Position numbers and translations under genes: made by a program. A model generated the notes under the pieces. The model did no database searches. It saw only the letters and a list, made by a program, of their open reading frames with translations, and was not told the origin of the DNA. Source: Actinomycetota bacterium (GTDB lineage Bacteria > Actinomycetota > UBA4738 > CALAEC01). From it: a stretch of DNA of 64,000 nt. Numbering within the stretch: the first letter of the stretch is position 1; each line of letters starts with the position of its first letter. Below, in pieces: positions 3,589-58,167 of this stretch. The DNA lies in NCBI GenBank assembly GCA_050693155.1, contig JBOGWA010000128.1, forward strand, positions 10,668 through 74,667. The letters are read 5' to 3'.

Positions 3589-3711
3589 CCGGTCGACTCA
3601 TTCGGTGGAGTCGGGTCCGGGAATTATCTCTGAATCTGCGCCTCACGGGGGCGGAGGGTGGCGTCGGGCGCTCGATGAGGCTCGACTAGACTCCGGGACC
3701 GAGAAGTAGAG

Positions 3712-6112: not shown

Positions 6113-6137
6113 CCGCCGGGACCGGCCGGTATGCTTC

Positions 6138-34803: not shown

Positions 34804-35276
34804 GGTTCCTGGACGAGCTCGACGAGGACCCCGCCGAAGCCCTTCGGGTGGACGAACGCCACCTTCGTGCCCCGCGAACCCGGCCGCGGCTCCTGGTCGA
34901 CGAGTGAGATTCCCTCCTCCTTGAGGCGCTCGAGGGCGGCCCGGATGTCCGTCACCCGGTATCCCACGTGGTGGACGCCCTCTCCGCGCTTGGCGAGGAA
35001 TCTCCCGACGGGCGTGTCCGGCCCGAGCGAGCGCAGGAGCTGAATGTAGGAGGTCCCGATCTTGAAGAGGACCTCTTCCACGCCTTGATCCTCGATCGTC
35101 TCCCGGTGTGCAGGTTCCACGCCGAACGAGCGCCGGTATCGCTCGACCGCGGCCTCGAGGTCGGCGACCGCGATGCCGACGTGATCGATGCCGTCAAGCA
35201 CGCTGTGCCTCTGTTCTGCGGCGCCGCCCGGGGCTCGGCTCCGGCTGGAGGGATTGTTGTGAATCATGACAATCAT
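34800..35276 (-). CDS. mce: Methylmalonyl-CoA epimerase (VOC/glyoxalase family)
   Basis: 158 aa from the ATG at complement 35274..35276; the track ORF is extended by 258 aa. Motifs IDHVGIAV and HHVGYRV. Its stop overlaps the sthA stop (convergent). Confidence 0.7.
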   Translation of the reverse strand: MIVMIHNNPSSRSRAPGGAAEQRHSVLDGIDHVGIAVADLEAAVERYRRSFGVEPAHRETIEDQGVEEVLFKIGTSYIQLLRSLGPDTPVGRFLAKRGEGVHHVGYRVTDIRAALERLKEEGISLVDQEPRPGSRGTKVAFVHPKGFGGVLVELVQEP

Positions 35277-35423
35277 ATCGCCGTGTCCGAATGGCGCTTC
35301 GTGTCCGCATGCAGCCTTCACGGCAGCGCAGGTGTCCTGATTCGGCCGTCGAACCTTCGATCGATGGGCATGACCGGTAGCGCGAATTGGCGTCATCCGG
35401 CAGACTGTGCACCCCGTATCGAG

Positions 35424-37259
35424 ATGAGTCCGACGACCACGAGCTCCGTCGCAGCCACCCTCGGCCAGTCGAGGCTGCTCGCGGTCGGCAAGGCCGACGT
35501 TGCGAGAATCCGCGCGAAGACGCGCCGGCGCCGCATCGTTCGGTTCCTCGTGATCTTCGGTCTTGTCGACGGCTATCTCTGGTACCGCTACCTCTCGGGG
35601 AACCCGATCGGCCCGCCGAGCCTCCCAGCCGACGCGGTCCTCTGGCTCCCGGCGCTTCTCTTGATTGTGCTCCTGGGCGTGCTGATCCTGCTGCCGATGA
35701 TCGGGAGCGGCCGCTCGCCCCACTCCCTCGTGCGACCTGAGCAGATCGACGTGGGCCTCGAAGAATTGAAGGGCCTGGACCCGCAGGTCGATGAGGTCAT
35801 TCGAAGCCTGAACGTCTTCCTCGGCCACGTGACCTTCCGGGAACGGCTCGGTGGGACCCCTCGCCGAGGGATCCTCTTCGAGGGCCCTCCCGGGACCGGG
35901 AAGACGTTCCTCGCGAAGGCGATGGCCAAGCAGGCGGGCGTCCCGTTCCTGTTCGTCTCGGCGCCGGCCTTCCAATCGATGTGGTTCGGGATGACGAACG
36001 CGAAGATCCGAGCGTTCTTCAGGGCGCTTCGCAAGATTGCTCGGCGCCAAGGCGGGGCGATCGGCTTCATCGAGGAGATCGATGCCATCGGAGCCGACCG
36101 AGGCGCGGTAACCGCCACGGCCTCAGCCGACGACAACAGGAGAAGCGTCTCGAGCTTCATCTCACCCGGAGCCGGAGGAATGGTGAACGAGCTGCTGATC
36201 CAGATGCAGTCCTTCGATCAGCCGACGTGGAGGCAGAGGCTGTGGACGCGAATCGTCGAGTGGATCAACGGTTATCTGCCGGAAGGAAAGCGGGTCGAGT
36301 CGGGTCGGCCCGAATACCACAACATCCTGCTGATCGCTGCGACGAATCGCGCGGAGGCGCTCGACCCCGCGCTCGTGCGACCCGGTCGCTTCGACCGCCG
36401 ACTCTACTTCGACCTTCCCACGAAGAAGGGGAGGAGAGATCTCATCGACTACTTCCTCGCCCGAAAGTCGCACGGAGAGGACCTCGAGGGGGAGGAGGCG
36501 CGCGAGCGTCTCGCACACGACACGTTCGGCTACACGCCCGTCGCGCTCGAGCGGCTCTTCGACGAGGCGCTCCTCACGGCCCTCCGCCACGGGCGCGATC
36601 GGATGACCCCTCCCGACGTCTACGAGGCCAAGCTCTCCGAGGAGGTCGGTCTCCGCCAGCCGGTGGTCTACACGCAAGAGGAGAAGGTGACCGTCGCCAC
36701 CCACGAGGCGGGGCACGCGACCGTCGCACACATCCTCGGCACGACCCGCCGGCTCGAGGTGCTCTCGATCATCAAGCGAAGGAAGTCCCTCGGCCTCCTC
36801 GCGCACGCCGATCTGGAGGAGCGCTTCACGAAGTCGCGCTCCGAGCTCGAGGCGCTGGTCGCTATCGCGATGGGTGGCCTCGCGGCCGAAGAGCTCTTCC
36901 TCGGCGAGAGCGGAACCGGGCCCGGGGCCGATCTGGCTGCGGCGACGGAAGTTGCCGCAACGATGGTGGGCGCGCTTGGAATGGCCGGCTCACTCGTGTC
37001 CTACGAGGCGATCGGAGAGAGCGCGATCCAGACGCGAAATCTCGTGGCGAAGGTCCTCGCCGATCCGGATGCAAAACGTCGGGTGGAGCTACTCCTTGAG
37101 AAGCAAAGACAGAAGGCCGTGAGCGTGCTCGAGGAAAACCGGGACATCGTTGAGTCGCTCCGCGACGCCCTTCTCGACCGCGACGAGCTCGTGGGGAACG
37201 AGATCGTCGGCGTGATCGAGGAAGCACTCGGCCGGCGCCCCGTCCTCGTCCTCGACTAG
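35424..37259 (+). CDS. FtsH-like membrane AAA+ ATPase fused to an M41 zinc metalloprotease (divergent paralog)
   Basis: Two N-terminal transmembrane helices, Walker A GPPGTGKTF, Walker B IEEIDAIG, an SRH region, and HEAGHA (HEXXH). I chose the ATG at 35424; an alternative ATG is at 35364. The track ORF from 34968 overlaps mce. Confidence 0.7.
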   Translation: MSPTTTSSVAATLGQSRLLAVGKADVARIRAKTRRRRIVRFLVIFGLVDGYLWYRYLSGNPIGPPSLPADAVLWLPALLLIVLLGVLILLPMIGSGRSPHSLVRPEQIDVGLEELKGLDPQVDEVIRSLNVFLGHVTFRERLGGTPRRGILFEGPPGTGKTFLAKAMAKQAGVPFLFVSAPAFQSMWFGMTNAKIRAFFRALRKIARRQGGAIGFIEEIDAIGADRGAVTATASADDNRRSVSSFISPGAGGMVNELLIQMQSFDQPTWRQRLWTRIVEWINGYLPEGKRVESGRPEYHNILLIAATNRAEALDPALVRPGRFDRRLYFDLPTKKGRRDLIDYFLARKSHGEDLEGEEARERLAHDTFGYTPVALERLFDEALLTALRHGRDRMTPPDVYEAKLSEEVGLRQPVVYTQEEKVTVATHEAGHATVAHILGTTRRLEVLSIIKRRKSLGLLAHADLEERFTKSRSELEALVAIAMGGLAAEELFLGESGTGPGADLAAATEVAATMVGALGMAGSLVSYEAIGESAIQTRNLVAKVLADPDAKRRVELLLEKQRQKAVSVLEENRDIVESLRDALLDRDELVGNEIVGVIEEALGRRPVLVLD

Positions 37260-37319: not shown

Positions 37320-38465
37320 ATGGATTTCAGTCTGACCGAGGAACAAACCCGATTCCGGGAAGAGGTTCTGCGGTTCGCCGAGGCGGAGCTGAACGACGAT
37401 CTGATCCGGCGGGACGCCGACGGAACTTTCTCTCGCGAGGCATGGAAGAAGTGCGCGGCGCTCGGGATCCAGGGAATGCCGGTTCCGCAGGAGTACGGAG
37501 GACTTGCGGCCGACCCGCTCACGATCATGATCGCGATGGAGGCCCTCGGCTACGGGTGTCGGGACAACGGGCTTCTCTTCTCGCTGAATGCGCAGATGTG
37601 GTCTTGCGAGGTCCCGCTCGTAAAGTTCGGAACCGAGGAGCAGAAGCGCCGGTACCTTCCTGGGCTCTGCGACGGCTCCCTGATCGGGGTGCAGGCCATG
37701 ACCGAGCCGGAGTCGGGATCGGATGCGTTCGCCTTGCGAACCACGGCCGTGAAGAAGGACGGCGTCTATGTTCTCAATGGCTCGAAGACCTTCGTGACGA
37801 ACGCGCCCCTGGCCGACGTGTTCGTCGTGTTCGCGACGGCCGATCAGGCGAGGGGGAGCGCCGCCATCTCGGCCTTCCTTGTCGATGCGGAGACGCCGGG
37901 ACTCTCCCGAGGACGTCCGTTCGACAAGATGGGGCTTCGAACCTCGCCGATGAGCGAAGTCGCCCTTTCGGACTGTGAAGTGCCCGAGGAGGGCCTTCTT
38001 GGACGCCCGTACGCGGGCATGGCGATCTTCAACTCCTCGATGCAATGGGAGCGAGCCTGCATCTTGGGGACGACGGTCGGGACGATGGAGCGCCTTCTCG
38101 AGCGTTCGATCTCTCACGCTCGCTCGCGGCGCCAGTTCGGAAAGTCCATTGGCAAGTTCCAGGGAGTCTCGCATCGGATCGCCGACATGAAGGTCCGCCT
38201 CGAGTGCGCCCGCCTCCTTCTGTACCGCCTCGGATGGCTGATGAACGAGGGGCGGGCGAGCCCGCTCGATTCGGCGATGACAAAGGTGTTTCTGTCCGAG
38301 AGCTTGGTCCAAACGAGCCTCGACGCGCTTCAGATCCACGGGGGATACGGCTACATGCGCGAGTACGAGCTCGAACGAGAGGTACGGGACGCGATCGCGG
38401 GCCGAATCTACTCGGGGACATCGGAGATCCAGCGAAACATCATCGCCGGCTTTCTGGGCTTGTGA
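37320..38465 (+). CDS. Acyl-CoA-dehydrogenase-family flavoprotein; by context a candidate aminoacyl-S-carrier-protein dehydrogenase (PltE/RedW/AnaB-like)
   Basis: 381 aa. ACAD fold with C-terminal YSGTSEIQRNIIA. Its stop overlaps the GTG of the downstream adenylation enzyme (GTGA). Confidence 0.8.
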   Translation: MDFSLTEEQTRFREEVLRFAEAELNDDLIRRDADGTFSREAWKKCAALGIQGMPVPQEYGGLAADPLTIMIAMEALGYGCRDNGLLFSLNAQMWSCEVPLVKFGTEEQKRRYLPGLCDGSLIGVQAMTEPESGSDAFALRTTAVKKDGVYVLNGSKTFVTNAPLADVFVVFATADQARGSAAISAFLVDAETPGLSRGRPFDKMGLRTSPMSEVALSDCEVPEEGLLGRPYAGMAIFNSSMQWERACILGTTVGTMERLLERSISHARSRRQFGKSIGKFQGVSHRIADMKVRLECARLLLYRLGWLMNEGRASPLDSAMTKVFLSESLVQTSLDALQIHGGYGYMREYELEREVRDAIAGRIYSGTSEIQRNIIAGFLGL

Positions 38466-40051
38466 CCGACTCCCTCCCCGCGGTTCTCGAAACGGCGACC
38501 GAGGCCAACCCCCAGAGGCTTGCGGTTGCCGATTCCCGTCTGTCCATGACCTATGCGGACCTGGAGCGTCAGGCGAATCGGCTGGCGCACCTTCTCAGGG
38601 ATCTCGGGGTGAAGAAAGGTGACCGCGTCGGTGTCTACCTCGAGAAGTCGTGCGAATCGCTCGTCGGTGTCTACGGGGCGATGAAGGCGGGGGCTGCGTA
38701 CGTCCCCCTCGACCCGTTCAGCCCGGCGAAGCGGCTCGCCTACATCGGTCGAGACTGCGGTATCCGAACGCTCTTGACTGGAGCGGAAATGGCCGAGACC
38801 TGGCCGGCGCTCATCGCCGAGGGGGCGGCGATCGACCATCTGGTGGTGCTGAACGAGCCCGAGGGACGCCTTCCCGGCGAGATTTCCGGCCCCCGCGGAA
38901 TCGGGACTGCGTCGCTGCTCGAGATGCCGGACGCGCCTCCAACGCACCCGCCGGGCGACGGGGATCTCGCCTACATCCTCTACACGTCGGGGTCGACGGG
39001 GAACCCGAAGGGGGTGATGCTCACCCACCGAAATGCGCTCGCATTCGTTGAGTGGGCCGCCTCGGAGTTAGCGCTGACGCCCGAGGATCGGCTCTCGAGC
39101 CACGCTCCGCTGCATTTCGACCTGTCGATCTTCGACCTGTTCGCAGCCGCCCGAGCTGGAGCTTCGCTTTGCCTCGTCCCGAGCGAAGTGGCGCTCTTTC
39201 CTGTCCAGCTTGCCGCCTGGATCGACGAGCAGCAGATTTCGGTTTGGTATTCGGTGCCCTCCGCCCTCTCCATGCTCGTCGATCGAGGGAGGCTCGAGCC
39301 GGGTGCGTTCCCCCGTCTTCGCACCGTGCTGTTCGCTGGCGAGGTCTTCCCGAAGAAGTTCCTCCGTCGGCTCATGCAGCTTGTGCCGCATGCACGCTTC
39401 TACAACCTGTACGGACCGACCGAGACCAACGTGTGCACGTTCCATGCCGTGCGCTCCTCGGAGGTTGACGATTCGTCCGAGATCCCGATCGGGAAGGCGA
39501 TCAGCGATGTCGAGGTCTTCGCGGTAACCGAGCGAGACCGTGTTGCGGCTCCGGGTGAGGTGGGTGAGCTCTTCGTTCGGGGCCCGAGCGTGATGCAAGG
39601 CTACTGGGGAGATACCGAACGGACCGCCCGGGTGCTCGTTTCGAATCCGATCGATCGAGCTTCGCGGGATCTCGTCTACCGAACGGGTGACCTCGTGCGG
39701 CTGGAGCGGGACGGAAACTATTCCTTCCTGGGTCGCCGTGATGCGCAGATCAAGAGCCGTGGGTACCGCATCGAGCTTGGTGAGATCGAGAGTGTGTTGA
39801 ACGCGCATCCGGCAGTACTTGAGTCGGCCGTCGTCGCGGTCCCGGATGAGCTGCTGACGAACAGGATCAAGGCCTTCGTCGTCGCCGGCCAGAAAGTCCC
39901 TGCCGGGGATCTCGCGCGCTTCTGCGTCGAGCGGATTCCCCGCTACATGGTGCCAGAAGAGTTCGAGTTCCTCTCGCGACTTCCGAAGACATCAACGGGC
40001 AAGATCGACCGCCAGGCCCTTCGTCCCCAGGAGTCCTCTAACCCGGCATAA
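38462..40051 (+). CDS. Free-standing amino-acid adenylation enzyme (NRPS A-domain; candidate L-prolyl-AMP ligase)
   Basis: 530 aa from the GTG at 38462; the track ORF has a 139-aa extension. Core motifs A3 LAYILYTSGSTGNPKG, A4 FDLS, A5 NLYGPTE, A7 YRTGDL, A8 GRRDAQIKSRGYRIELGEIE and A10 PRYMVP...TSTGKIDR. By-eye Stachelhaus code D-L-F-Y-L-A-L-V-C-K. Confidence 0.85.
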   Translation: MTDSLPAVLETATEANPQRLAVADSRLSMTYADLERQANRLAHLLRDLGVKKGDRVGVYLEKSCESLVGVYGAMKAGAAYVPLDPFSPAKRLAYIGRDCGIRTLLTGAEMAETWPALIAEGAAIDHLVVLNEPEGRLPGEISGPRGIGTASLLEMPDAPPTHPPGDGDLAYILYTSGSTGNPKGVMLTHRNALAFVEWAASELALTPEDRLSSHAPLHFDLSIFDLFAAARAGASLCLVPSEVALFPVQLAAWIDEQQISVWYSVPSALSMLVDRGRLEPGAFPRLRTVLFAGEVFPKKFLRRLMQLVPHARFYNLYGPTETNVCTFHAVRSSEVDDSSEIPIGKAISDVEVFAVTERDRVAAPGEVGELFVRGPSVMQGYWGDTERTARVLVSNPIDRASRDLVYRTGDLVRLERDGNYSFLGRRDAQIKSRGYRIELGEIESVLNAHPAVLESAVVAVPDELLTNRIKAFVVAGQKVPAGDLARFCVERIPRYMVPEEFEFLSRLPKTSTGKIDRQALRPQESSNPA

Positions 40052-40059
40052 TTGGTCCC

Positions 40060-40341
40060 GTGACGCTCGCGCCCCGCATCCTCGAATTCGTGAAGAACGA
40101 AGTGCTCGTAGAGGATCACGAGATGCCGATCTCCGACGACACCCCACTGCTTCGCGGCCTCGTGGACTCTGTCAACCTGTTTCGGCTCGTCGCGTTCTTG
40201 GAGGAGGAGTTCGATATCGAGATCGACGAGCTGGAGATCACCGCTGAGAACTTCGGCACGATCGCCGACATCGCGCGCCTGGTGGACCGGACGCGTCGTG
40301 ACACGCCAGAACAGTCTGACCCCGGTTCCCCGTCTACGTAA
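40060..40341 (+). CDS. Small peptidyl/aminoacyl carrier protein (type II PCP, DltC/PltL-like)
   Basis: 93 aa, GTG start. Phosphopantetheine-attachment motif GLVDSVNLFRLV and an acidic helical protein. Confidence 0.75.
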   Translation: MTLAPRILEFVKNEVLVEDHEMPISDDTPLLRGLVDSVNLFRLVAFLEEEFDIEIDELEITAENFGTIADIARLVDRTRRDTPEQSDPGSPST

Positions 40342-40375: not shown

Positions 40376-41065
40376 TCACGGCTCCCTGCGGAACAGGACG
40401 TAGACCATGTCGACGTGTTTCCTGCCGAGCGGGTACCGGATCTTCTGAACGGCAAGGGTTTTCAGGGTGGGCGCGGCGAGGTCTGGAAGCAGGGACTCCA
40501 AGGGCGCCTCGTTTCGGAGAAAGCGTCTGATGAGGGTTCGAACGACGGGAACGGGAATCCTGTTGATGCGCCCGAGTCGCGCACAGTACAGCTGAAACAA
40601 GCCTCCCGGCCTGAGGAGCCGGCAAACGGCCTCGAAATAGTCGGGCCACTCCGAGGGCGGAACGTGGTGGAGACATCCTCGGTCGAACACGAACGTGAAC
40701 GTGCCGTCTTTGAAGGGGATCCGCGGCGCCTCTGCAACGAGATATGAGACCTTCCCACCGACCGTGCCGTTGGCTTCCCTGGCCTGCATGAGCGCGCCAA
40801 TGGCCACGTCGAGGCCGACGACCCGCTCTAGATGGCGCCCCAGGTAGTTCGTCACGACTCCGGAACCGCAGCCAACATCGAGCGCGAGACCCTGTGGCAG
40901 CTCGCGACTCTCCTCGAGGAGCCGAAGCTCTGGGGGCGGCTCGGCAAGGTACCACCCGAACTCTGAAGCGCGCCTCCTTGACCATTCGACTTCCCAGTGT
41001 CCCCGCTGTTCGCTGGGCCCCGGCGGTCCCTGACTGTTCCGCTCTTCTGGATGGCTCGAGATCAA
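40376..41065 (-). CDS. Class I SAM-dependent methyltransferase
   Basis: SAM-binding motif LDVGCGSGV plus post-I/II motifs. I propose a TTG start at complement 41063..41065, overlapping the stop of the upstream thioesterase (TTGA). The track ORF is 117 aa longer. Confidence 0.6.
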   Translation of the reverse strand: MISSHPEERNSQGPPGPSEQRGHWEVEWSRRRASEFGWYLAEPPPELRLLEESRELPQGLALDVGCGSGVVTNYLGRHLERVVGLDVAIGALMQAREANGTVGGKVSYLVAEAPRIPFKDGTFTFVFDRGCLHHVPPSEWPDYFEAVCRLLRPGGLFQLYCARLGRINRIPVPVVRTLIRRFLRNEAPLESLLPDLAAPTLKTLAVQKIRYPLGRKHVDMVYVLFRREP

Positions 41066-41532
41066 ACCGGGGCTCCGGGAGTCGCCTCTTCTTCGGCCAC
41101 CACGGGCTCGGCGAGGGAGGCGCGGCGGCCGGGGAGGATCATCGAGGTGCCGACCGCCGCCGCGACCCGCTTTCCTTCGGCGTTCACGACCTCGCAGACC
41201 GCGGTCGCGAGGGTCTTCCCTCGATGGTCGATCGTCGCCCTCGCCTCGAGGTCTCGGCCGTCGGGTTCCACGGGACGGAAGAAGTTCATCTTGATGTCGA
41301 GTGGGGCGAAGGCCGTTCCGGCAGGCACCGTTGTCAGGACGGCGCCCTGCATCGCGAGTTCCGCGACGAACACGATCGCGCCGCCCTGGACACGCCGGAG
41401 AGGTGAGTTGAGCCACTCGGTCGTGGGAAGTGTCTGCGTGGCCCTCCCTTCCTCAGCATCAACCGGGCGAGATCCCGTGAGGTAGTAGAGCGGGGGAGCC
41501 GGCAACCTTCCGTCGATCCATTCTTGCATCAT
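41062..41532 (-). CDS. Hotdog-fold thioesterase (PaaI/4HBT-like)
   Basis: 156 aa. Contains VQGGAIVFVAELAMQG, a hotdog core. It overlaps the upstream paralog by 74 nt, so the start is uncertain. Confidence 0.6.
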   Translation of the reverse strand: MMQEWIDGRLPAPPLYYLTGSRPVDAEEGRATQTLPTTEWLNSPLRRVQGGAIVFVAELAMQGAVLTTVPAGTAFAPLDIKMNFFRPVEPDGRDLEARATIDHRGKTLATAVCEVVNAEGKRVAAAVGTSMILPGRRASLAEPVVAEEEATPGAPV

Positions 41533-42172
41533 CTGGAGACCGCTCCATGCGGTCCCACACCTCCTGCGGGATCGGCTCGCCCATCACCGGGCGCTCCCAC
41601 GGATCGGGCGTGTCGTAGGAAGGAATCTCCGGCGCGTAATCATCCGGCGGAGGGTCGGGCGCCGGATCGAGCGGCGGGAAGACGTAACAACGGGAGGTCC
41701 CGTGCGCCAGCATCCGCTCGTGCTCGTCGTAGAGGAACGTTTCCGAGAGGCCGATCGAGCGTCCGACGTGGATCAATTGCCCGTGCGCGGAGATCCGACC
41801 GCTCCGGACCGTGGCCGGCCGAAGAAACGTCATCGAGAGTTCCGCCGTCGTGTACGCGGTCGCAGGCGGAAGGGCCGAATGGACCGCCGTGCCGAGCGGG
41901 GCGTCGGCGAGCATGGCGAGGACCCCACCCGGAATGACGCCCGCGGGAGATTGGAGCCACGGACTCGCCGGCATCGAAAACGCTGACGTGCCCTCGCCTA
42001 TCTGGTCGAACCAGATGCCGATGAGATGAGAGACCGGCGGTCGCGGTCCGAGGAACTTGAGCCCGGTGCGGAGCTGCTCCAACCCCGTGAGGCCGAAAAG
42101 GCGTAGGTCGCCGTATCCGCCCCGCGCCGGCTCGCTCGTCGCGATGGGCTCCGGGAAGGGCGATGGACTCAT
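41459..42172 (-). CDS. Hotdog-fold thioesterase (PaaI/DUF4442-like), tandem paralog
   Basis: GVIPGGVLAMLADAPLG motif. I chose the ATG at complement 42170..42172; the track GTG is at 42187. Confidence 0.6.
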   Translation of the reverse strand: MSPSPFPEPIATSEPARGGYGDLRLFGLTGLEQLRTGLKFLGPRPPVSHLIGIWFDQIGEGTSAFSMPASPWLQSPAGVIPGGVLAMLADAPLGTAVHSALPPATAYTTAELSMTFLRPATVRSGRISAHGQLIHVGRSIGLSETFLYDEHERMLAHGTSRCYVFPPLDPAPDPPPDDYAPEIPSYDTPDPWERPVMGEPIPQEVWDRMERSPDDARMDRRKVAGSPALLPHGISPG

Positions 42173-42224
42173 GCGTGAGGAACCCACTTGGGGCCGACTG
42201 TCGGCCGAGCTAGTGAGCCTTCCC

Positions 42225-42932
42225 TCAGCTCACGGGTTCGGGGTCGACTGCGGAGAGGAAGCCCCACCAGGCCTCGAGGGCATCCTCGGTGGCGCCAACG
42301 GCGGCTTCCGGCTCGTCCTCCGCGAGTTCCTCGAGCATCGCGCGCTCGGCGCCCGAATGCTCCACATCGAGCCGCTCGTGGACCTCGAAGAACCCCGTGG
42401 TCCGGCCATCATCGATCCCGTAGTGCTTCCGCAGCCCGTCGATCTTCACACGAGAAACGGCCGGCACTTGTGCTTCGTAGGCATGGATCGCGGCGATCCC
42501 GGCAGCGACGGGCTCGCGGGCCGAGGTCCTCCGGTACGTCTCGACCAGCGTTCGCGTGGCCTCGTTTCGCTGCGAAGAGCGGACGTCGTCCCGTCCGACG
42601 CCCATCCCTTCGGCGAACTGGAGCCATAGCTCGGCGTGGTTTTCCTCCCCGTGCTCCTCATCCCACAGGTTCTCCAGCAGATGTTTGCGAACGAGCGGGT
42701 TCTCCGATCTCGAATGGATCGCCGAGAGAAACCGTGGGAATTCCGATTCGAAGGCGTAGTACTGACGGGCGTACTCCTGGATGGCTTCTTTCGGGAGCGT
42801 CCCCGCGTCCCACTTCTTGTAGAGCGGATGGGAAAGCAGATGGCGCTCCTGGATCATGCGATCGATCGTGTCGATGACGGCCACAGCGTCTCCTCCTTGT
42901 ATGTTGTCCGTGGGGCCCCAACAGACTCCCAC
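42225..42932 (-). CDS. CADD-like heme-oxygenase-like di-metal oxygenase (PqqC/TenA fold); homolog of the Chlamydia self-sacrificing p-aminobenzoate synthase
   Basis: 235 aa, GTG start. Aligns along nearly its full length with CADD/CT610 as I recall it. All six metal ligands are conserved (WDEEHGEENH, YEAQ, HERLDVEH). The sacrificial Tyr context (PLYKKW versus TFYVKW) and the Lys in RVKIDGL are also conserved. Confidence 0.75.
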   Translation of the reverse strand: MGVCWGPTDNIQGGDAVAVIDTIDRMIQERHLLSHPLYKKWDAGTLPKEAIQEYARQYYAFESEFPRFLSAIHSRSENPLVRKHLLENLWDEEHGEENHAELWLQFAEGMGVGRDDVRSSQRNEATRTLVETYRRTSAREPVAAGIAAIHAYEAQVPAVSRVKIDGLRKHYGIDDGRTTGFFEVHERLDVEHSGAERAMLEELAEDEPEAAVGATEDALEAWWGFLSAVDPEPVS

Positions 42933-46759: not shown

Positions 46760-48706
46760 TCAGGCCGTCGCGGCCCTGATCTTCTCGAGGGCGCTTGGGT
46801 TCTCGAGACTCGAAAGGTCACCCGGGTCTTCCCCGAGGACAGCGGCTCGGATCGCGCGGCGGAGGATCTTCGCCGAGCGCGTCTTCGGGAGATCGTCGAC
46901 GAAAACGATTCGCGAGGGCGTGAAAGCCTTCCCCAGCCTCTCTGCGACGAGTCCCTTCAGTTCCTTCTCGAGCGTGTCGTCGATCTCTGCGCCCGGCTTC
47001 GTGATGACGAAGCACCACACCGCCTCGCCCTTGACCTCGTGGGGCACGCCGACGGCCGCGGACTCCGCGACGAACGGATGGTCCACGAGCGCCGATTCCA
47101 CCTCTGCCGGGCCCAGGCGCTTGCCGGCGATGTTCATCGTGTCGTCGGAACGGCCGTGGAGGAACCAGGCGCCGTCCTCATCGACGCTCGCCCAGTCGCC
47201 GTGGACCCAGACGTCGGGCCACCGGGACCAGTAGGTCTCGAGATACCGTTCCGGATCGCCCCAAACGCCCCGAGTCATGCCCGGCCAGGGCTTCGTGCAC
47301 ACGAGCTCGCCCACCTCGCCTGGGGCTACAGGTTTTCCATCCGGCCCCCAGACCTCGATCGCCATCCCGAGCGAAGGCCCGCCGAGGGAGGAGTTCTTGA
47401 TCGGTGCGATCGGGAGCGGCGAGAGGAAGCAGGCGCCGACCTCGGTCCCTCCCGAGATGTTGATGATCGGGCACCGGGCGCCGCCGATTCTCTCGAAGAA
47501 CCATTGGTACGGTTCCGGGTTCCAGGGCTCGCCGGTGGAGCCGAGAACCCGAAGAGATGACAGGTCGTGCGCGTCCACCCATTCCTCACCTGCGGGGATG
47601 AGCGCCCGGATGAGCGTGGGGGAAACCCCCAGGTGGGTGATCCGGCGCCGTTCGATCATGTCCCAGAGGCGGTCGGGATCGGGGTGGTTCGGAGCGCCCT
47701 CGTACAAGAAGACCGTCGCACCCAGGGCGCCCGCTCCGACGATCTCCCACGGGCCCATGATCCACCCGAGGTCGCTCACCCAGAAGAGGGTCTCGCCCTG
47801 GTGAAGATCGATCTGATAGGCGACCTCTTCGGCGATCTTCACCGTGAACCCGCCGTGGACGTGCACCGAACCTTTCGGGAGGCCGGTCGTCCCGCTCGTG
47901 TACGCGATCAGGAGCGGGTGCTCGCTGTCGAGCGAGCGAGTCTCGAAGCGCTCATCGGGCGCCTCATCGAGAAGCGTCTCCCAGCGAACGTCCCGGGTTT
48001 CGTCCCACGGCAGGTCGTCGCGATGCAGCCGTGACCAGGTGACGACGTGTTCGAGGGTCGGCGCGGCGCGCGCGGCCTCGTCGGCCGTCTCTTTCATCGG
48101 AACCGTTCCGCCTCTTCGGAGGAACCCGTCGGCCGTGATCAGGACCTTCGCGCTCGCGTCGACCAAGCGCGTGGCCACGGCGTCGGCAGCGAACCCCGAG
48201 AAGATCGGCAGGTAGATCGCTCCCAGCTTGGCACAGGCGAGCGTTGCGCCCACGGTCTCCGGGGCCATAGGCATGAAGATGCCGATGGTGTCGCCCTCCT
48301 GGACGCCGAGTGAGCGAAGGCCGTGCGCCAGCCGGTCGGCCATGGCGCGCAACTCCCGGTATGTAACGGTGCGGGAGGCGCCGTCCTCTCCCTCCCAAAG
48401 GATCGCCGTCGCGTCGGGGGTTCGCTCGGCCCACCGATCGACGCAGATATGGGCGAGGTTCGTCCGCCCGCCTACGAACCATCTCGCCCAGGGGATTCCG
48501 TCGGAGGTGTCGAGCACCCGCTCGTAGGGGGCGAGGAAGGCGAGATCGAGGTCCTTGACGACGGCGTCCCAGAACCACTCGAGGTCATCTTGGGATCGGC
48601 GCACGAGCTCCTCGTACGAGTCGATCTCGTGTGCGCGCATGAACCGGGTGACGTTCGCCCGCTCCACGTACTCCTTCGTCGGCTTCCAGATCGGAGGCTG
48701 AGGCAT
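46760..48706 (-). CDS. AMP-forming acyl-CoA synthetase of the acetyl-CoA-synthetase family (acetate, propionate or acetoacetate-CoA ligase type)
   Basis: 648 aa from the ATG at complement 48704..48706 (MPQPPIWKPTKEY...); the track ORF has 35 extra codons. Motifs YTSGTTGLPKG and ISGGTE, and C-terminal KTRSAKILRR. Confidence 0.8.
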   Translation of the reverse strand: MPQPPIWKPTKEYVERANVTRFMRAHEIDSYEELVRRSQDDLEWFWDAVVKDLDLAFLAPYERVLDTSDGIPWARWFVGGRTNLAHICVDRWAERTPDATAILWEGEDGASRTVTYRELRAMADRLAHGLRSLGVQEGDTIGIFMPMAPETVGATLACAKLGAIYLPIFSGFAADAVATRLVDASAKVLITADGFLRRGGTVPMKETADEAARAAPTLEHVVTWSRLHRDDLPWDETRDVRWETLLDEAPDERFETRSLDSEHPLLIAYTSGTTGLPKGSVHVHGGFTVKIAEEVAYQIDLHQGETLFWVSDLGWIMGPWEIVGAGALGATVFLYEGAPNHPDPDRLWDMIERRRITHLGVSPTLIRALIPAGEEWVDAHDLSSLRVLGSTGEPWNPEPYQWFFERIGGARCPIINISGGTEVGACFLSPLPIAPIKNSSLGGPSLGMAIEVWGPDGKPVAPGEVGELVCTKPWPGMTRGVWGDPERYLETYWSRWPDVWVHGDWASVDEDGAWFLHGRSDDTMNIAGKRLGPAEVESALVDHPFVAESAAVGVPHEVKGEAVWCFVITKPGAEIDDTLEKELKGLVAERLGKAFTPSRIVFVDDLPKTRSAKILRRAIRAAVLGEDPGDLSSLENPSALEKIRAATA

Positions 48707-48707
48707 C

Positions 48708-50075
48708 GTGAGTCCGGGTACCCTTTGCCTGATGTCTGAGCGTAAGCGTACGACCGCGGCCGGCCCGAGCACCACGGCGCCGGGACCTCTCGGGCGGTGG
48801 GATCGAATCATGCTCGTGATCGCCGGCTACCTGACGGCCGCACTCTCCCTCGGCGCCGCGGGCGCGATCGGCTTGCTGAAGTTCACCGAGTCCCAGCTCA
48901 ACCGAGTCGAAGTTTCGGCGCTTTCAAGAGAGTTCAGCGGCCCGGTGAACGTTCTCTTGCTCGGAAGCGACACGCGGGAAGGCCTCACGGAGGAGGAGCA
49001 GCAGCGGAAAGGTAGTCCTGAAGAGGTATCGGGCGTGCGTTCCGACACGATCATCCTCATCAACTTCGACCCTCGCAGGAACCGAGCCGTGATGGTCCAC
49101 TTCCCTCGTGATCTCCGCGTGGAGATCCCCGGGCACGGGGAGGACAAGATCAACGCGGCGCTCAATCTCGGCGGTCCGGATCTGGTCGTGGAGGCGATCC
49201 GGAAGTTCACCGGCCTGCCCATCCACCACTACCTGGAAGTGAACTTCAACGGTTTCCGGGCCCTCGTCGAAGCGATCGGCGGCGTCGATATGTGTGTCGA
49301 CCGACCGCTGTTCGACGAGCTCGCGGAGCTCAACATCCCGCAAGCCGGCTGCTACACGTTCGACGGCGACACAGCACTCGCGTTCGTTCGAGCCCGAAAC
49401 GTCGAGGGAGACCTGATCCCCGACTTCAATCGGATCGCGAGGCAACAGCAGTTCATCCGGGCTCTGCTGAACGAATTCCTCCGGCCGGGGGCGCTGGTTC
49501 GCCTTCCTTCGCTCCTCGGCCTTGCGGCGCGAAACCTCACCACCGACACCGAGCTTGCGGCGACGGACCTGCTCTTCCTCGCGGCGAAGCTCCGCGGGCT
49601 CGCCGAGGCCGACCCCACCGGGGCATCGAATATCGATCTTCGCGTCGTCCCGGGCCTGCCGCAGACCATCGACGAGATCTCCTACGTGATCGCCGTCCAA
49701 CCGGAAACCGAGCGGCTCTTCAAGGCCCTGCGGAACGGGACGGCCCTGGGCAACCTCGGCACGGTTCAGGCGGGAACCCCGACGTCTCCTGCGCTCATCG
49801 GGATCCAGGTGTTGGAGGCTGGAGCCGGTGACGAACAGACCGGGCTCGTCGTCGATCTGCTCCGCCGAGCGGGATTCCTGGTGCTCGGCACGGCGCCGGC
49901 GCCGCCCGAGGAGACCGCAAGCGTGATCATCTACCGGCGGGGGGCCCGGGACCTTGCAGACACCGTCGCCGGCTTCTTCCCGGAGCTGCCGCTTCGTGAG
50001 GGGAGCACGGCCATCCTCCGGGGAGCCGACGTCGCGATCGTCGTCGCCGATGACTTCCGGGGGTTCGAAGGATGA
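48708..50075 (+). CDS. LytR-CpsA-Psr (LCP) family cell-wall glycopolymer transferase with a C-terminal LytR_C domain
   Basis: 455 aa. N-terminal transmembrane anchor, then LCP core (VLLLGSDTR...RSDTIILINFDP...FDGDTALAFVRAR). Its stop overlaps the next gene's ATG (ATGA). Confidence 0.85.
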   Translation: MSPGTLCLMSERKRTTAAGPSTTAPGPLGRWDRIMLVIAGYLTAALSLGAAGAIGLLKFTESQLNRVEVSALSREFSGPVNVLLLGSDTREGLTEEEQQRKGSPEEVSGVRSDTIILINFDPRRNRAVMVHFPRDLRVEIPGHGEDKINAALNLGGPDLVVEAIRKFTGLPIHHYLEVNFNGFRALVEAIGGVDMCVDRPLFDELAELNIPQAGCYTFDGDTALAFVRARNVEGDLIPDFNRIARQQQFIRALLNEFLRPGALVRLPSLLGLAARNLTTDTELAATDLLFLAAKLRGLAEADPTGASNIDLRVVPGLPQTIDEISYVIAVQPETERLFKALRNGTALGNLGTVQAGTPTSPALIGIQVLEAGAGDEQTGLVVDLLRRAGFLVLGTAPAPPEETASVIIYRRGARDLADTVAGFFPELPLREGSTAILRGADVAIVVADDFRGFEG

Positions 50076-51133
50076 AGGCGCTCGTCCTCGCCGGCGGTGA
50101 GGGATCGAGGCTCCGCCCGATCACCCACACGAATGCAAAGCAGCTCATCCCGATTGCGAACAAACCGATTCTGTTCTACGGGCTCGAGGCCATTCGAGAC
50201 GCGGGGATCCGCGAGGTCGGGATCGTGGTCGGAGCGACCGCGGACGAGATCACGGGTGAGGTGGGCGACGGCTCTGCGTGGGGCCTTCGGGCGACCTACC
50301 TTCGCCAGGACTCTCCACGCGGTCTCGCTCACGCCGTCCTGATCTCGCGGGAGTTCTTGGGGGACGAGCCGTTCGTCATGTATCTGGGCGACAACGTCCT
50401 CCTCGAGGGGGTTGCCGGCTTCGTGGAACAGTTCGAAGCCCACCGTCCGAACGCGCAGATCTTTCTTGCCGCGGTGCCGGAGCCGGAACGGTTCGGGGTT
50501 GCCGTGCTCGAAGGCGATCGAGTCGTCCGACTGGTCGAGAAGCCGAAGGAGTACATTTCCGATCTCGCGCTCGTTGGTGTGTATCTCTTCGACCCCTCGA
50601 TTCACCAGGCCGTCGCGTCGATCGAGCCGTCCTCGCGTGGGGAGCTCGAGATCACCGACGCGATTCAGAACTTGATCGATGCCGGGCGCGCCGTGCGCGC
50701 GGAGATCGTCGGCGGCTGGTGGAAGGACACGGGCAAGCTCGAGGATCTCCTCGAAGCGAATCAGATGATGCTTTCGGTACTCGAGCCTCGCGTAGATGGG
50801 GAGGTCGACGAGGACTCAACGCTCGTGGGACCCGTCACGATCGAACCGGGAGCGAAGGTCGTTCGCTCGGTGATCCGCGGGCCCTCGATCATCGGATCGG
50901 ACACCGTGATCGAAGATTCACTCGTCGGTCCCTACGCTTCGGTCTACTTCGGCTGCGAGATCACCGGGAGCCAGATCGAGAACTCCATCGTCATGGAGCG
51001 CTGCCGGGTGGACGGTATCGAAGCGATCGCCGAGTCGCTTGTCGGAAAGAACGTCGAGATCCGCCGCGGAGGTGTCCGACCCGCGATGTACCGGCTGATG
51101 CTCGGCGATCAAAGCCAAGTCGAGGTCTCCTAG
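50072..51133 (+). CDS. rmlA: Glucose-1-phosphate thymidylyltransferase, long form (nucleotidyltransferase plus left-handed beta-helix)
   Basis: 353 aa. N-terminal LAGGEGSRLRPITHTNAKQL signature and C-terminal hexapeptide repeats. Confidence 0.8.
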   Translation: MKALVLAGGEGSRLRPITHTNAKQLIPIANKPILFYGLEAIRDAGIREVGIVVGATADEITGEVGDGSAWGLRATYLRQDSPRGLAHAVLISREFLGDEPFVMYLGDNVLLEGVAGFVEQFEAHRPNAQIFLAAVPEPERFGVAVLEGDRVVRLVEKPKEYISDLALVGVYLFDPSIHQAVASIEPSSRGELEITDAIQNLIDAGRAVRAEIVGGWWKDTGKLEDLLEANQMMLSVLEPRVDGEVDEDSTLVGPVTIEPGAKVVRSVIRGPSIIGSDTVIEDSLVGPYASVYFGCEITGSQIENSIVMERCRVDGIEAIAESLVGKNVEIRRGGVRPAMYRLMLGDQSQVEVS

Positions 51134-51138
51134 ACCCG

Positions 51139-52296
51139 ATGCGGGTCGCGATCGATGTCCGTCCGGCGGTGTCGGCCGGAATGACTGGAATCGGTTTCTA
51201 CACCCGCTATTTGCTCGAGCTGCTTCCCGAGGTGGATCCGGCGGCCACGTACGTCGCCTGGTATCTGAACGCGAAGGCTATTTTGAAGCCGATCCATCGG
51301 CGGCGGTTCTTTTCGAACATCGCCGGCCTCGTCGAGCGCGCAACGCCCTTTCCCGCTCGACTGTTCGAGCGGCTTTCCGAGCGGTTCGAGCTCCCGAGGG
51401 TGGAATGGTTCACGCGGTTTGACGTCCTATTCGCGCCGAACTTCCTTCCGCCCCCGACGAAGACCCGCCGGCTGGTGCTGACGATCCACGACCTCGCGTT
51501 CAGGAAGTTCCCGGAGACGGCCCCGGCCGCGACGCTTCGCTGGCTCGGTCGCCTGGATCGCGCTCTCGAACAAGCTGCCGAGATCATCGCCGTCTCCGAG
51601 CACACGAAGGCAGACCTCTGTGAGCTATACCCGGTGGAGCCGGACCGGGTGACCGTGATCCCGCATGGGGTCGACACCAATGTGTTCCATCCGCCGCTGC
51701 CTGAGGAAGTCGAGCGAGTTCGGCGGACGTTGGAGATCGAGGGCCCGTACCTCGTTTTCCTCGGAGGGATCGAGCCGCGGAAGAACCTCCCGGCATTGGT
51801 TCGCGCGTTCGCGAAGCTTCCCGCTCGGTTCCAACACACCCTCGTCATCGCAGGCGCGAGCGTGCCGTGGAATCCCGAGGGCGTCGACCAGCTGCGACCG
51901 GTCGTGGAAGAGCTGCGACGCGAAGCGAGGCAGCGCATCGTTTTCGCCGGCTACCTCTCCGACGAGAACAAGGTGGCTCTGCTCGGCGGCGCGCGGGCGC
52001 TGGTGTTTCCCTCCCGCTACGAGGGCTTCGGACTGCCGGTTCTGGAGGCGATGGCGTGCGGAACGCCGGTTCTGACCTCGAACGTGTCCGCCCTCCCGGA
52101 GGTGGCGGGCGACGCGGCGGTGCTCGTCGATCCGACCGATGAGGACTCGATCGCGTGGGGGATCCAGCTCATCCTGGGGAACGAGGAGCATCGAGAACGG
52201 CTTCGGCAGCAGGGGTTTCGCCGAGCGGCGCAGTTCGATTGGCGCGAGACGGCTCGACGCACGGCCGCGGTGCTTCACCGCGCCGCAAAGGCCTAA
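51139..52296 (+). CDS. Glycosyltransferase family 4
   Basis: 385 aa from the ATG at 51139; the track ORF 50278.. is in the same frame but over-extended. Contains IEPRKN and SRYEGFGLPVLEAMA. Confidence 0.8.
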   Translation: MRVAIDVRPAVSAGMTGIGFYTRYLLELLPEVDPAATYVAWYLNAKAILKPIHRRRFFSNIAGLVERATPFPARLFERLSERFELPRVEWFTRFDVLFAPNFLPPPTKTRRLVLTIHDLAFRKFPETAPAATLRWLGRLDRALEQAAEIIAVSEHTKADLCELYPVEPDRVTVIPHGVDTNVFHPPLPEEVERVRRTLEIEGPYLVFLGGIEPRKNLPALVRAFAKLPARFQHTLVIAGASVPWNPEGVDQLRPVVEELRREARQRIVFAGYLSDENKVALLGGARALVFPSRYEGFGLPVLEAMACGTPVLTSNVSALPEVAGDAAVLVDPTDEDSIAWGIQLILGNEEHRERLRQQGFRRAAQFDWRETARRTAAVLHRAAKA

Positions 52297-52333
52297 ACTT
52301 GAGTGCCCGGCGTCCCCCCACTGGAGTCTCCTG

Positions 52334-52798
52334 ATGAGCGATGAGATCAATGGGGTCTGGGTGAAGGATCTCACCGTGATCCCCGACGAGCGGGGACGGC
52401 TGTTCGAGGTTCTCCGCCACGACGACGAGGGCTTTGTTCGTTTCGGGCAGGTCTACGCCACGACCACGTATCCCGGGGTTGTGAAGGCCTGGCATCTTCA
52501 CAGGGTTCAGCTCGACAACTTTTGCTGCGTGAAGGGGATGGTGAAGCTCGTTCTGTTCGACGGCCGGGAGGACTCGCCGACGAAGGGAACGTTGCGCGAA
52601 TACTTCATCGGGGAACACAACATGAAGCTCGTTCGGGTTCCGGCCGGTGTGCACCACGGGTGGAAGTGCATCTCCGAGGAAGAGGCCGTCGTGATCAACG
52701 TCCCGACCGAGCCGTACAACCACGAGGAACCGGACGAGTTTCGCCTGGACTGGGACTCCGCGGAGATCCCGTATTCCTGGGACGTCGTCTTCGAGTGA
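52334..52798 (+). CDS. rmlC: dTDP-4-dehydrorhamnose 3,5-epimerase-family cupin (RmlC-like)
   Basis: 154 aa from the ATG at 52334. Cupin fold with His/Lys/Tyr residues conserved in RmlC (FGQVYATT...KAWHLH). Confidence 0.7.
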   Translation: MSDEINGVWVKDLTVIPDERGRLFEVLRHDDEGFVRFGQVYATTTYPGVVKAWHLHRVQLDNFCCVKGMVKLVLFDGREDSPTKGTLREYFIGEHNMKLVRVPAGVHHGWKCISEEEAVVINVPTEPYNHEEPDEFRLDWDSAEIPYSWDVVFE

Positions 52799-53751
52799 AG
52801 ATCCTCGTTCCCGGCGCGGCGGGCTTCATCGGGTCGCACTTCGTGGACCTGCTCGTCCGAGCGAGGCCGAGCGATGAGCTCGCGGTGCTCGATGCGCTCA
52901 CGTACGCGGGCGACATCCGGAACCTTGCGGCCCACGAACGGGAGCCCCGCTTTCAATTCGTCAGGGGCGACGTCGCCGACCCAAAGATCATCAATCCGCT
53001 CGTCGAGTGGGCCGACCTCGTCGTGAACTTCGCGGCGGAGTCGTTCGTCGATCGGAGCATCGAGGAAGCAGCCCCATTCGTGCGGACCAACCTGACGGGC
53101 ACACTCGTGCTGCTCGACGCCTGCCGCACCTCCCGAACGGCGATGGTCCAGGTCTCAACCGACGAGGTATATGGATCGATCGCTCAGGGAGCGTTCTCGG
53201 AGTCGAGCCTCCTCGCTCCGAACAATCCCTACTCGGCGACGAAGGCGGGGGGCGACTTGCTTTGCCGCGCGTACCACCACACCTACGGGATGGACGTTCG
53301 GATCATGCGCGGTCCGAATTCGTACGGACCGCGGCAGAACCCGGAGAAAGCGATCCCGACCTTTACGATTGCGGCGCTCACGCGAAAGCAGCTACCCATC
53401 TACGGCGATGGCTCGAACCGTCGCGAGTGGCTCTACGTTGCGGACTTCTGCCGTGCCGTGCTGACCGTGGCCGAGGACGGCGAGCCCGGAGAGATCTACA
53501 ACGCGGGCGGGGGTCACGAGCTAGCGAACCTCGAGCTCGCAACGGAGATCTGCCGGCTTACCGGTGCACCGGAGGCGTTGATCACCTTCGTCGAGGACCG
53601 CCCCGGTCACGACTTTCGGTACTCCATGGTCTGGGACCGACTCTCTGCCCTTGGCTGGAAACCGGAGACCGACTTCGGCGAAGGGCTCGAGCGGACGGTC
53701 ACTTGGTTCCAGCAACATGCTGAAAGGTGGCCGGGGGGTTTGGGAGGATAG
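52795..53751 (+). CDS. rmlB: dTDP-glucose 4,6-dehydratase
   Basis: 318 aa from a GTG overlapping the rmlC stop (GTGA). Motifs GAAGFIGSH, STDEVYG and YSATKAG. Confidence 0.9.
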   Translation: MKILVPGAAGFIGSHFVDLLVRARPSDELAVLDALTYAGDIRNLAAHEREPRFQFVRGDVADPKIINPLVEWADLVVNFAAESFVDRSIEEAAPFVRTNLTGTLVLLDACRTSRTAMVQVSTDEVYGSIAQGAFSESSLLAPNNPYSATKAGGDLLCRAYHHTYGMDVRIMRGPNSYGPRQNPEKAIPTFTIAALTRKQLPIYGDGSNRREWLYVADFCRAVLTVAEDGEPGEIYNAGGGHELANLELATEICRLTGAPEALITFVEDRPGHDFRYSMVWDRLSALGWKPETDFGEGLERTVTWFQQHAERWPGGLGG

Positions 53752-53816
53752 CTCGCCATGGGTGAGACGCCGGTTCTGGCGGTAGCGAGCGAACCCCCCG
53801 ATCGGAAGGAGAAGCG

Positions 53817-54647
53817 ATGAGGATCGCGGTTACCGGCGCCGGCGGCGGACTGGGGCGGGCGTTCGTCGAACGGGCGCCCGGACATCACGACATTGTGGCG
53901 TTCACGCACGAGGAGCTCCCGGTGGAGGAGCGCCACAGCGTCTTCCAGCTCCTCGTTCCGACGCGGCCGGATCTCGTTCTGCATTGCGCCGCGATGACGA
54001 GGGTGGACGACTGCGAGGAAGACCCCGATCGAGCGTTCCGGGTGAATGCATCGGGCACGGGGAACGTTGCTCGCGCGACCCGGGAGGCCGGGGCGTTGCT
54101 CGTCTACGTCTCGACGGACTACGTCTTCGACGGCGAGAAGCGGGAGCCGTACCACGAGTTCGACCGCACAAACCCGATCTCGGCGTACGGCGCGAGCAAG
54201 CTCGCAGGGGAGGAACAGGCCCGTCTCACTCCCGAGCATCTCATCGTGAGAACGTCGTGGGTGTTCGGCGCGCCGGGCGATTACGTGACTCGATCGCTCG
54301 AGGAGCTCAGGGGAGGGGCGACGGTCGGCGCGGTGGTTGACCGGACCAGTACACCGACCCACGTTGGTCATCTCGCCGAGCGTCTCGTCCCGCTCGCGCT
54401 CACCGGCCGGCGGGGCCTTGTTCACCTCGGAGGCCCCGAAGCCACGACGTGGTTCGACCTCCTCTCCCGAGCACGAGAGCTCGGTGGTCTCAAGGGCGAG
54501 GTGTTGGAACAGAAGACGGGTGACCTGCGCCTGCCCGCGCCCCGGCCCACGAACTCGGCCCTTCGCAGCGTCGTACTCGAAGACGGGGAGGTTCCGCCGA
54601 TGCCTCCGCTCGATGACGCGCTCGAGGAGTTGCTCGGTGGCGACTGA
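53817..54647 (+). CDS. rmlD: dTDP-4-dehydrorhamnose reductase
   Basis: 276 aa. Motifs VTGAGGGLG, YGASKLAGE, and STDYVFDG. Confidence 0.85.
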   Translation: MRIAVTGAGGGLGRAFVERAPGHHDIVAFTHEELPVEERHSVFQLLVPTRPDLVLHCAAMTRVDDCEEDPDRAFRVNASGTGNVARATREAGALLVYVSTDYVFDGEKREPYHEFDRTNPISAYGASKLAGEEQARLTPEHLIVRTSWVFGAPGDYVTRSLEELRGGATVGAVVDRTSTPTHVGHLAERLVPLALTGRRGLVHLGGPEATTWFDLLSRARELGGLKGEVLEQKTGDLRLPAPRPTNSALRSVVLEDGEVPPMPPLDDALEELLGGD

Positions 54648-57692: not shown

Positions 57693-57787
57693 GATGGCTT
57701 CGTCGACAACCTGCTCATGAGCATACGAGCCCCCTGGATGTCGACTACGAACCACCCCCGCCGCCGGGGGAGGGGAGGAGAACTCGC

Positions 57788-58159: not shown

Positions 58160-58167
58160 GGCCCTCG

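Follow-up and report, generated by a model that had tools for sequence, protein, structure and literature searches.

Cassette layout

The stretch of DNA analysed here, referred to as the window, comprises 64 kb of the metagenome-assembled genome (MAG) of an Actinomycetota bacterium (GTDB UBA4738; CALAEC01; assembly GCA_050693155.1, contig JBOGWA010000128.1, positions 10,668-74,667 of the forward strand). The gene of interest encodes an adenylation (A) enzyme and is the middle one of a three-gene cassette in which it is preceded by the gene for a dehydrogenase homologue and followed by that for a carrier protein (Table 1). The open reading frame (ORF) of the A gene has 529 codons, with GTG at 38462 as its start and TAA at 40049-40051 as its stop. 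The latter, together with the upstream gene's stop codon that overlaps the start, defines the limits of the ORF. The dehydrogenase stop overlaps the GTG start within the sequence GTGA (TTGTGA context), the carrier gene begins 8 nt past the TAA, and the cassette is translationally coupled. The GC content at third codon positions (GC3) of the cassette equals that of the neighbouring genes. A scan for promoters and terminators was uninformative, as it returned no promoters and terminator-like sites only at chance level.

Table 1. Coordinates and properties of the cassette genes and of other features of the window
Feature	Position	Strand	Description
Dehydrogenase homologue	37320-38465	+	381 aa, acyl-CoA dehydrogenase fold
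Free-standing adenylation enzyme	38462-40051	+	529 aa, predicted L-proline--[L-prolyl-carrier protein] ligase
Span of the ten code residues	39119-40003	+	D220 (39119-39121) to K514 (40001-40003), from alignments
Type II peptidyl carrier protein	40060-40341	+	93 aa, predicted phosphopantetheine site Ser37 (40168-40170)
FtsH-like AAA/M41 protease	34968-37259	+	ends 60 nt before the cassette
Methyltransferase, long ORF	40376-41416	-	Arg-rich N-terminal 130-170 residues
Two hotdog-fold thioesterases	41062-42187	-	convergent with the cassette; ORFs overlap by 74 nt; both match 4HBT / TIGR00369
CADD-family heme-oxygenase-like gene	42225-42932	-	TIGR04305, 254.7 versus cut-off 200
Cell-wall glycopolymer-like locus	48702-60023		LCP ligase, RmlA/C/B/D-type, Wzm/Wzt exporter (Wzt_C), GT4, GT2, second sugar nucleotidyltransferase

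The adenylation enzyme and its specificity code

Pfam detects an AMP-binding domain (1e-91) and an AMP-binding_C domain in the A protein. Because these were the only domains found, the enzyme is considered free-standing, with no fused condensation, thiolation or thioesterase domain. ORF location and domain content thus agree with the initial annotation, which had placed a free-standing A-domain at this position. Motifs A3 to A10, as read in the translation, are intact (YTSGSTGNPKG, FDLS, NLYGPTE, GELFVRG, YRTGD, GRRDAQIKSRGYRIELGEIE, PRYMVP and PKTSTGKIDR).

The specificity code was extracted by software from alignments made in two MAFFT modes and pairwise by BLASTP, all anchored on the real GrsA-PheA sequence of PDB entry 1AMU, whose numbering was checked (the Asp of FDASVW is residue 235). 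GrsA itself, serving as positive control, returned its canonical code DAWTIAAICK. The code of the A protein is DLFYLALVCK, made up of residues D220, L221, F224, Y263, L290, A292, L316, V324, C325 and K514, of which D220 and K514 are the equivalents of Asp235 and Lys517. The same string had been read by eye in the initial annotation from an alignment to the GrsA landmarks. All residues of that alignment were right, whereas its description as ungapped was not: the A protein is 6 residues longer than GrsA in the interval 278-299 and 3 residues shorter in the interval 301-322.

An identical code is present in 88 of 120 homologues, a number that includes the window's own database copy, and the remaining ones differ at one or two positions; the match is therefore not due to chance. 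Two scans with the A protein yielded 160 related loci, nearly all of them from uncultured Actinomycetota, and those with an intact gene and at least 41% identity all keep the pattern DL(F/L)Y(L/F/V)AL(V/A)(C/N)K. Unrelated codes, DYYPTTMRxK and CFLHIAAPVK, are found in homologues with about 35% and 28% identity, respectively. The code is thus clade-specific.

Relationship to stand-alone L-proline enzymes

For stand-alone A-domains that activate L-proline, Kadlcik et al. (PMC3874040) describe the consensus L(L/F)YLALVC at the eight variable positions. Biochemically characterised members listed there are CloN4, CouN4, RedM, PltF, AnaC and Leu5, and PigI, Bmp4, NgnN4, CalN2 and others are added to the L-proline clade in PMC5730197. 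The residues LFYLALVC of the A protein fit this consensus at all eight positions. Codes read from PDB sequences are DLLYLALVC for PltF and DLFYIAWVC for PigI, that is one and two differences from the A protein, and DLFYLALVCK itself corresponds to the consensus variant with F and not to the code of PltF. A full-text literature search for DLFYLALVCK, DLLYLALVCK and related strings returned no paper; the consensus was found in prose instead. Attribution of the code to L-prolyl ligases of the PltF, RedM, CloN4 and AnaC type, which the initial annotation had proposed, is hence borne out by the published consensus.

Overall similarity points in the same direction. Among single-domain matches in the PDB, PltF (6o6e_B) ranks first with 349 bits, compared with 253 bits for the best nonribosomal peptide synthetase (NRPS) domain and 234 bits for DltA. 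Over the pocket region PltF scores 120.8 bits and PigI, in second place, 91.5 bits, with all other entries at or below 77.7 bits. The curated scores for DltA are not reached (298.8 and 287.4 bits versus cut-offs of 476 and 560, respectively). The second-best NCBIfam model of the A-domain is that of the exosortase-associated ligase TIGR03098, whose cut-off of 592 bits is likewise missed with a score of 340 bits.

Dehydrogenase and carrier protein

The product of the upstream gene contains all three Pfam domains of acyl-CoA dehydrogenases (ACADs). Its top four PDB matches are all prolyl-carrier-protein dehydrogenases, namely AnaB (4irn; 445 bits, 50% identity), PigA (5zw0; 330 bits, 44%), a PigA E244A mutant and Bmp3 (6cxt_B; 303 bits), and both AnaB and PigA align to it without gaps, AnaB over 380 residues. 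Like AnaB, PigA and Bmp3, the protein has the motif SMQWER with Glu244 (codon 38049-38051), a residue described as the catalytic base (PMC10849742) and altered in the mutant PigA of entry 6af6. In the motif IYSGTSEIQ a serine replaces the canonical C-terminal glutamate of ordinary ACADs (IYEGT). The generic ACAD 5lnx and, as an internal control, the second ACAD of the window (3679-4875) have glycine at position 244 together with the EGT motif. The relocated Glu244 and the replaced canonical glutamate are both features of the prolyl-carrier-protein dehydrogenases. Among NCBIfam models the protein scores highest with PigA (450.6 bits against a cut-off of 500) and RedW (425.7 bits against a cut-off of 650). 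The dehydrogenase thus belongs to the prolyl-carrier-protein dehydrogenase class, yet is an orthologue of neither PigA nor RedW.

The product of the downstream gene matches the Pfam domain PP-binding weakly (7e-5; 23.4 bits, above the cut-off of 20.8). Its best PDB matches are the Bmp1 carrier domain (6cxt_A), 2my5, PigG and PltL, and Ser37 in the sequence LVDSV aligns with the phosphopantetheine serine of these proteins, the residue that is mutated in 2my6. A carrier gene occupies the equivalent position in most related loci. The A gene is thus accompanied by adjacent genes for a predicted cognate type II peptidyl carrier protein (PCP) and for a prolyl-carrier-protein dehydrogenase homologue.

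By their sequences, all three predicted cassette proteins point to the same known three-component system. We conclude that the A gene very probably encodes a type II L-proline adenylation enzyme of the PltF/RedM/PigI/CloN4/AnaC class, operating in a dehydrogenase/A-domain/carrier cassette that is likely to yield pyrrolyl-2-carboxyl-S-PCP.

The dehydrogenase and A genes are under purifying selection as judged by comparison with the closest relative, locus L081, a 3.9-kb metagenome contig that has the FtsH-like, dehydrogenase and A-domain genes in the same order. The corresponding proteins are 87%, 88% and 70% identical at the amino-acid level, and the ratios of nonsynonymous to synonymous substitution rates (dN/dS) are 0.07, 0.07 and 0.17, respectively. 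Given these ratios and the intact motifs, the hypothesis that the cassette is a relic was rejected.

Related loci

The dehydrogenase/A-domain/carrier trio is a conserved core that recurs in dozens of the related loci. In locus L009, an Acidimicrobiia MAG whose dehydrogenase and A protein are 67% and 60% identical to those of the window, a Bmp2-like pyrrole halogenase is encoded directly upstream (5539-6789; PDB 5bva, 281 bits). In L025 and L040 the A gene has genes for the same halogenase family and for a major facilitator superfamily transporter as neighbours. The relatives in Streptomyces (S. clavuligerus pSCL4 and S. flaveolus) lie within NRPS regions. With its three further A-domains, the pSCL4 locus (L082; 1,495,138-1,520,640; dehydrogenase 59% and A-domain 55.5% identical) probably represents an NRPS cluster; no annotation is given across the homologous region in the PLSDB record of pSCL4.

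In fetched loci with the proline code the A gene is often adjoined by a pair of α/β-hydrolase genes (for example L001:5009-6892, L026:6037-7951 and L144:3777-5653). Their products weakly match exosortase-A hydrolase 1 (TIGR03100, 1.6e-19) and hydrolase 2 (TIGR03101, 6e-16), with scores which, like that of the A protein against TIGR03098, are far under the respective cut-offs (70 versus 168 bits and 59 versus 203 bits). Hydrolase 1-like proteins have a GxCxG elbow, with Cys as nucleophile, and downstream Asp and His residues; in hydrolase 2-like proteins the place of the nucleophile is taken by Arg, Lys or Trp. The genes around the pair include those for a polyprenyl glycosylphosphotransferase, GT4 glycosyltransferases, UDP-Glc/GDP-Man dehydrogenase and a Wzx flippase, along with NeuB-like, YdjC/HpnK-like and ABC-2 genes.

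The nearest relatives for which downstream sequence is available (L144, 67% and L084, 64%) show the order A-domain, PCP, UDP-sugar dehydrogenase and NTP_transf_5, after which the hydrolases follow: hydrolase 2 and hydrolase 1 in L144, ABC-2 and then hydrolase 2 in L084, where the contig ends. In a neighbour-joining tree (unbootstrapped) the A protein of the window falls among the hydrolase-linked members. A clade of Acidimicrobiales loci (L024, L026, L028-L033, L111 and L123) has hydrolase 2, hydrolase 1, A-domain and PCP with the same proline code and no dehydrogenase, which implies a prolyl rather than a pyrrolyl donor. A NeuB-like gene is located nearby in L024 and L026-L033.

More distant loci differ in their codes. 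The stand-alone A-domains of L043-L070 and L148-L160 form a family of their own, with about 35% identity to the A protein of the window, the conserved code DYYPTTMR(C/V/A/T)K and, in several cases, a carrier gene just upstream; they stem from Alphaproteobacteria, Chloroflexi, Planctomycetota and Actinomycetes. The Paraburkholderia homologues, at 28% identity, lack Asp235 (code CFLHIAAPVK) and therefore probably do not take an amino acid.

Genomic surroundings

A Pfam scan covering essentially every credible ORF of the window revealed core-genome genes as neighbours of the cassette, among them those for a P450, an acyl-CoA ligase, an ACAD, methylmalonyl-CoA mutase, a Tad pilus, a carboxyltransferase, hut functions and the FtsH-like protease, and further genes for a CADD-type protein, a thiolase, an amidase, MsrA, acetyl-CoA synthetase and FbiB, as well as the rml/Wzm-Wzt/LCP locus from 48.7 kb, which begins 8.4 kb downstream of the carrier gene. 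A group of genes at 596-4875 encodes a cytochrome P450, an AMP-binding ligase (no AMP-binding_C match) and an ordinary acyl-CoA dehydrogenase. The FtsH-like gene is the only neighbour in the window that is conserved, and this only with L081.

The genes that follow directly downstream of the cassette, encoding the methyltransferase, the two hotdog thioesterases and the CADD protein, lie on the opposite strand. Together with the thiolase gene, they stand beside the cassette in none of the 160 related loci, and the downstream neighbours were accordingly not counted as cassette parts. The second hotdog thioesterase has a weak match to EntH (8e-5; 22.7 bits versus a cut-off of 237). The long methyltransferase ORF has a GC3 of 0.68 in its N-terminal part and 0.77 in its C-terminal part, and its true start is probably located near 40900-40940. 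TIGR04305, the model matched by the CADD-family protein, is of the 'putative folate metabolism' type and linked to an alternative p-aminobenzoate route.

Discussion

The analysis established how the genes are arranged, which code and catalytic residues they specify, which characterised homologues are closest and that purifying selection acts; the substrate, the extent of its oxidation and all later steps are inferred. The A enzyme would make L-prolyl-AMP from L-proline and ATP, with the amino and carboxyl groups of the substrate held by Asp220 and Lys514 and with a hydrophobic pocket of L, F, Y, L, A, L, V and C that would fit the pyrrolidine ring. The prolyl group would then be transferred to the thiol of the phosphopantetheine arm at Ser37 of the carrier, and the upstream flavoenzyme, using Glu244 as base, would oxidise prolyl-S-PCP, most likely to pyrrolyl-2-carboxyl-S-PCP through two successive two-electron steps. 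The logic of the pathway from proline to carrier-bound pyrrole has been described (PMC10849742, PMC11218499).

Several observations weigh against such a scheme. The dehydrogenase scores too low to pass the cut-offs of the curated PigA and RedW models of NCBIfam, and AnaB, its best solved relative, halts at (S)-pyrroline-5-carboxyl-acyl carrier protein (PMC3252866), whereas RedW, PltE and Bmp3 form pyrrole (PMC10849742). The carrier protein matches its Pfam domain weakly. Among essentially all credible ORFs of the 64 kb, the Pfam scan detected nothing that could use the product, be it a condensation domain, a ketosynthase, a halogenase or an acyltransferase, and the window contains no NRPS or polyketide synthase (PKS). 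Finally, the hydrolase pair of the relatives is absent from the window (best tblastn E value 0.04).

Activation of a proline analogue (4-methylproline, 4-hydroxyproline, pipecolate or azetidine-2-carboxylate) or of another small amino acid appears highly improbable. Specificity codes predict substrates and do not prove them, and CcbC weakly accepts 4-hydroxyproline (PMC3874040); all eight variable residues of the A protein, on the other hand, are those of the consensus of characterised L-proline enzymes, LmbC, which takes an analogue, required five of the eight to be changed (PMC3874040), and no genes for the biosynthesis of an analogue are found nearby. More weight must be given to a single two-electron oxidation of the AnaB kind with (S)-1-pyrroline-5-carboxyl-S-PCP (dehydroprolyl) as product. 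The higher score of the dehydrogenase with AnaB than with PigA would fit such a stop, as would the formation of pyrroline-5-carboxyl-AnaD by AnaC, AnaD and AnaB (PMC3252866), and no sequence feature was found that separates two-electron from four-electron enzymes. The pyrroline made in the anatoxin pathway, however, is passed by AnaB to a PKS, which it primes (PMC3252866), and there is none in the window; the NCBIfam profiles of PigA and RedW score as high as AnaB. We regard halting at the pyrroline as unlikely. Because a Bmp2-like halogenase gene adjoins that of the 67% identical dehydrogenase in L009 and because the Streptomyces relatives lie in NRPS regions, we lean to oxidation to pyrrole over oxidation to pyrroline. 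Halogenases of the Bmp2 type act on pyrrolyl-S-carrier proteins.

With pyrrolyl-2-carboxyl-S-PCP as the favoured product, its fate has to be considered. The hotdog thioesterases encoded within 1 kb of the cassette are candidates for release of the acyl group, and not established cassette parts. EntH, which one of them weakly resembles, is a proofreading thioesterase acting on aryl-carrier proteins. Hydrolytic release by a ChmF-type enzyme has been described for a carrier-bound pyrrole acid (PMC10849742). Since the thioesterase genes are on the opposite strand and do not recur beside the cassette in any related locus, and since the EntH match reaches only a fraction of the cut-off, hydrolysis to free pyrrole-2-carboxylate seems improbable to us. 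Somewhat better placed, if still doubtful, is the idea of a Dlt-like or exosortase-like system in which the cassette would serve as donor arm for placing a pyrrole-2-carboxyl (or prolyl) ester on an envelope glycan, with acyltransferases encoded elsewhere in the genome. The frequent association of the hydrolase pair with A genes of the proline code, in loci with glycan genes, is compatible with this idea; the GxCxG motif plus Asp and His of the hydrolase 1-like proteins would suit an acyl-enzyme intermediate; and TIGR03098 ranks second among the NCBIfam models of the A-domain. A precedent is CloN7, which transfers pyrrole-2-carboxyl to a sugar hydroxyl (PMC11218499), and the window itself contains the glycopolymer locus downstream of the cassette. 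By contrast, neither hydrolase has a homologue in the window, housekeeping genes lie between the cassette and the glycopolymer locus, and all hydrolase and ligase matches are far under the curated cut-offs. Moreover, we know of no pyrrole- or proline-acylated bacterial glycan.

Taken together, the gene neighbourhoods suggest a role in glycan acylation for part of the family; since both hydrolases are absent from the window, such a role at this locus can be raised only as a possibility. It is tempting to speculate, with even more reserve, that uncultured Actinomycetota of soil and sediment (Gaiellales, Thermoleophilia and Acidimicrobiia) share a widespread system, not described so far, to which the cassette would belong. 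In this system, a proline-specific A-domain and a carrier, with or without the dehydrogenase, might feed an α/β-hydrolase with a Cys nucleophile and its nucleophile-less partner, both of the exosortase hydrolase 1 and 2 type, which would esterify a surface glycan with pyrrole-2-carboxylate, or with proline in the dehydrogenase-free version of the Acidimicrobiales. It would represent a chemical analogue of D-alanylation, with the transferases encoded outside the window. If glycan acylation by the relatives is true, it would provide a function for the long-unexplained pair of exosortase-type hydrolases 1 and 2 and would amount to a new kind of cell-envelope decoration.

Our analysis allows the gene deposited as 'amino acid adenylation domain-containing protein' to be named as a probable L-proline--[L-prolyl-carrier protein] ligase, and its neighbours to be named as a prolyl-carrier-protein dehydrogenase and a PCP. 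The enzyme class is already known and the A gene adds a member to it; what is unusual is the orphan setting in a core genome and, in the relatives, the so far undescribed module with hydrolases and glycan genes. Proline/pyrrole cassettes are usually taken as markers of antibiotic or pigment gene clusters. In uncultured Actinomycetota they are common in core-genome or glycan-biosynthesis settings without NRPS or PKS.

Comparison with known systems

Among characterised enzymes, PltF of pyoluteorin biosynthesis (PDB 6O6E) is most similar to the A protein. Both are free-standing, share 47% identity over the pocket region without gaps and are identical in nine of ten code residues (DLLYLALVCK in PltF), and for both the partners are a dehydrogenase of the ACAD type and a small type II PCP. 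They differ at position 239, which is Phe in the A protein and Leu in PltF, and in length, the A protein being about 30 residues longer with the extra residues before the A3 motif. Furthermore, PltF acts within a halogenase/PKS cluster, whereas the window is devoid of linked downstream enzymes. The three-protein logic of the cassette is also that of PigI/PigG/PigA (MBC branch of prodigiosin biosynthesis) and RedM/RedO/RedW. The code of PigI, however, differs at two positions (I299 and W322), and no other prodiginine genes are present in the window. Of the proteins for the anatoxin-a starter (AnaC/AnaD/AnaB), AnaC is listed as one of the stand-alone A-domains for L-proline with the consensus code (PMC3874040, PMC5730197), and AnaB is, among solved structures, the closest homologue of the upstream gene product, with Glu244 conserved.

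Two further systems resemble the cassette or its relatives in organization. Many related loci have the same architecture as the exosortase A set of ligase, acyl carrier protein, hydrolase 1 and hydrolase 2, inside a polysaccharide locus; the window differs by the lack of such hydrolases, and the A protein by missing the TIGR03098 score. In clorobiocin and coumermycin biosynthesis, CloN4/CloN5/CloN3 form a proline-to-pyrrole cassette that works with CloN2/CloN1/CloN7, and, unlike in the window, which has no acyltransferase, dedicated acyltransferases move the product onto a sugar hydroxyl. Likened here by description, the CloN system is the nearest precedent for the possible role of the hydrolase-linked relatives.

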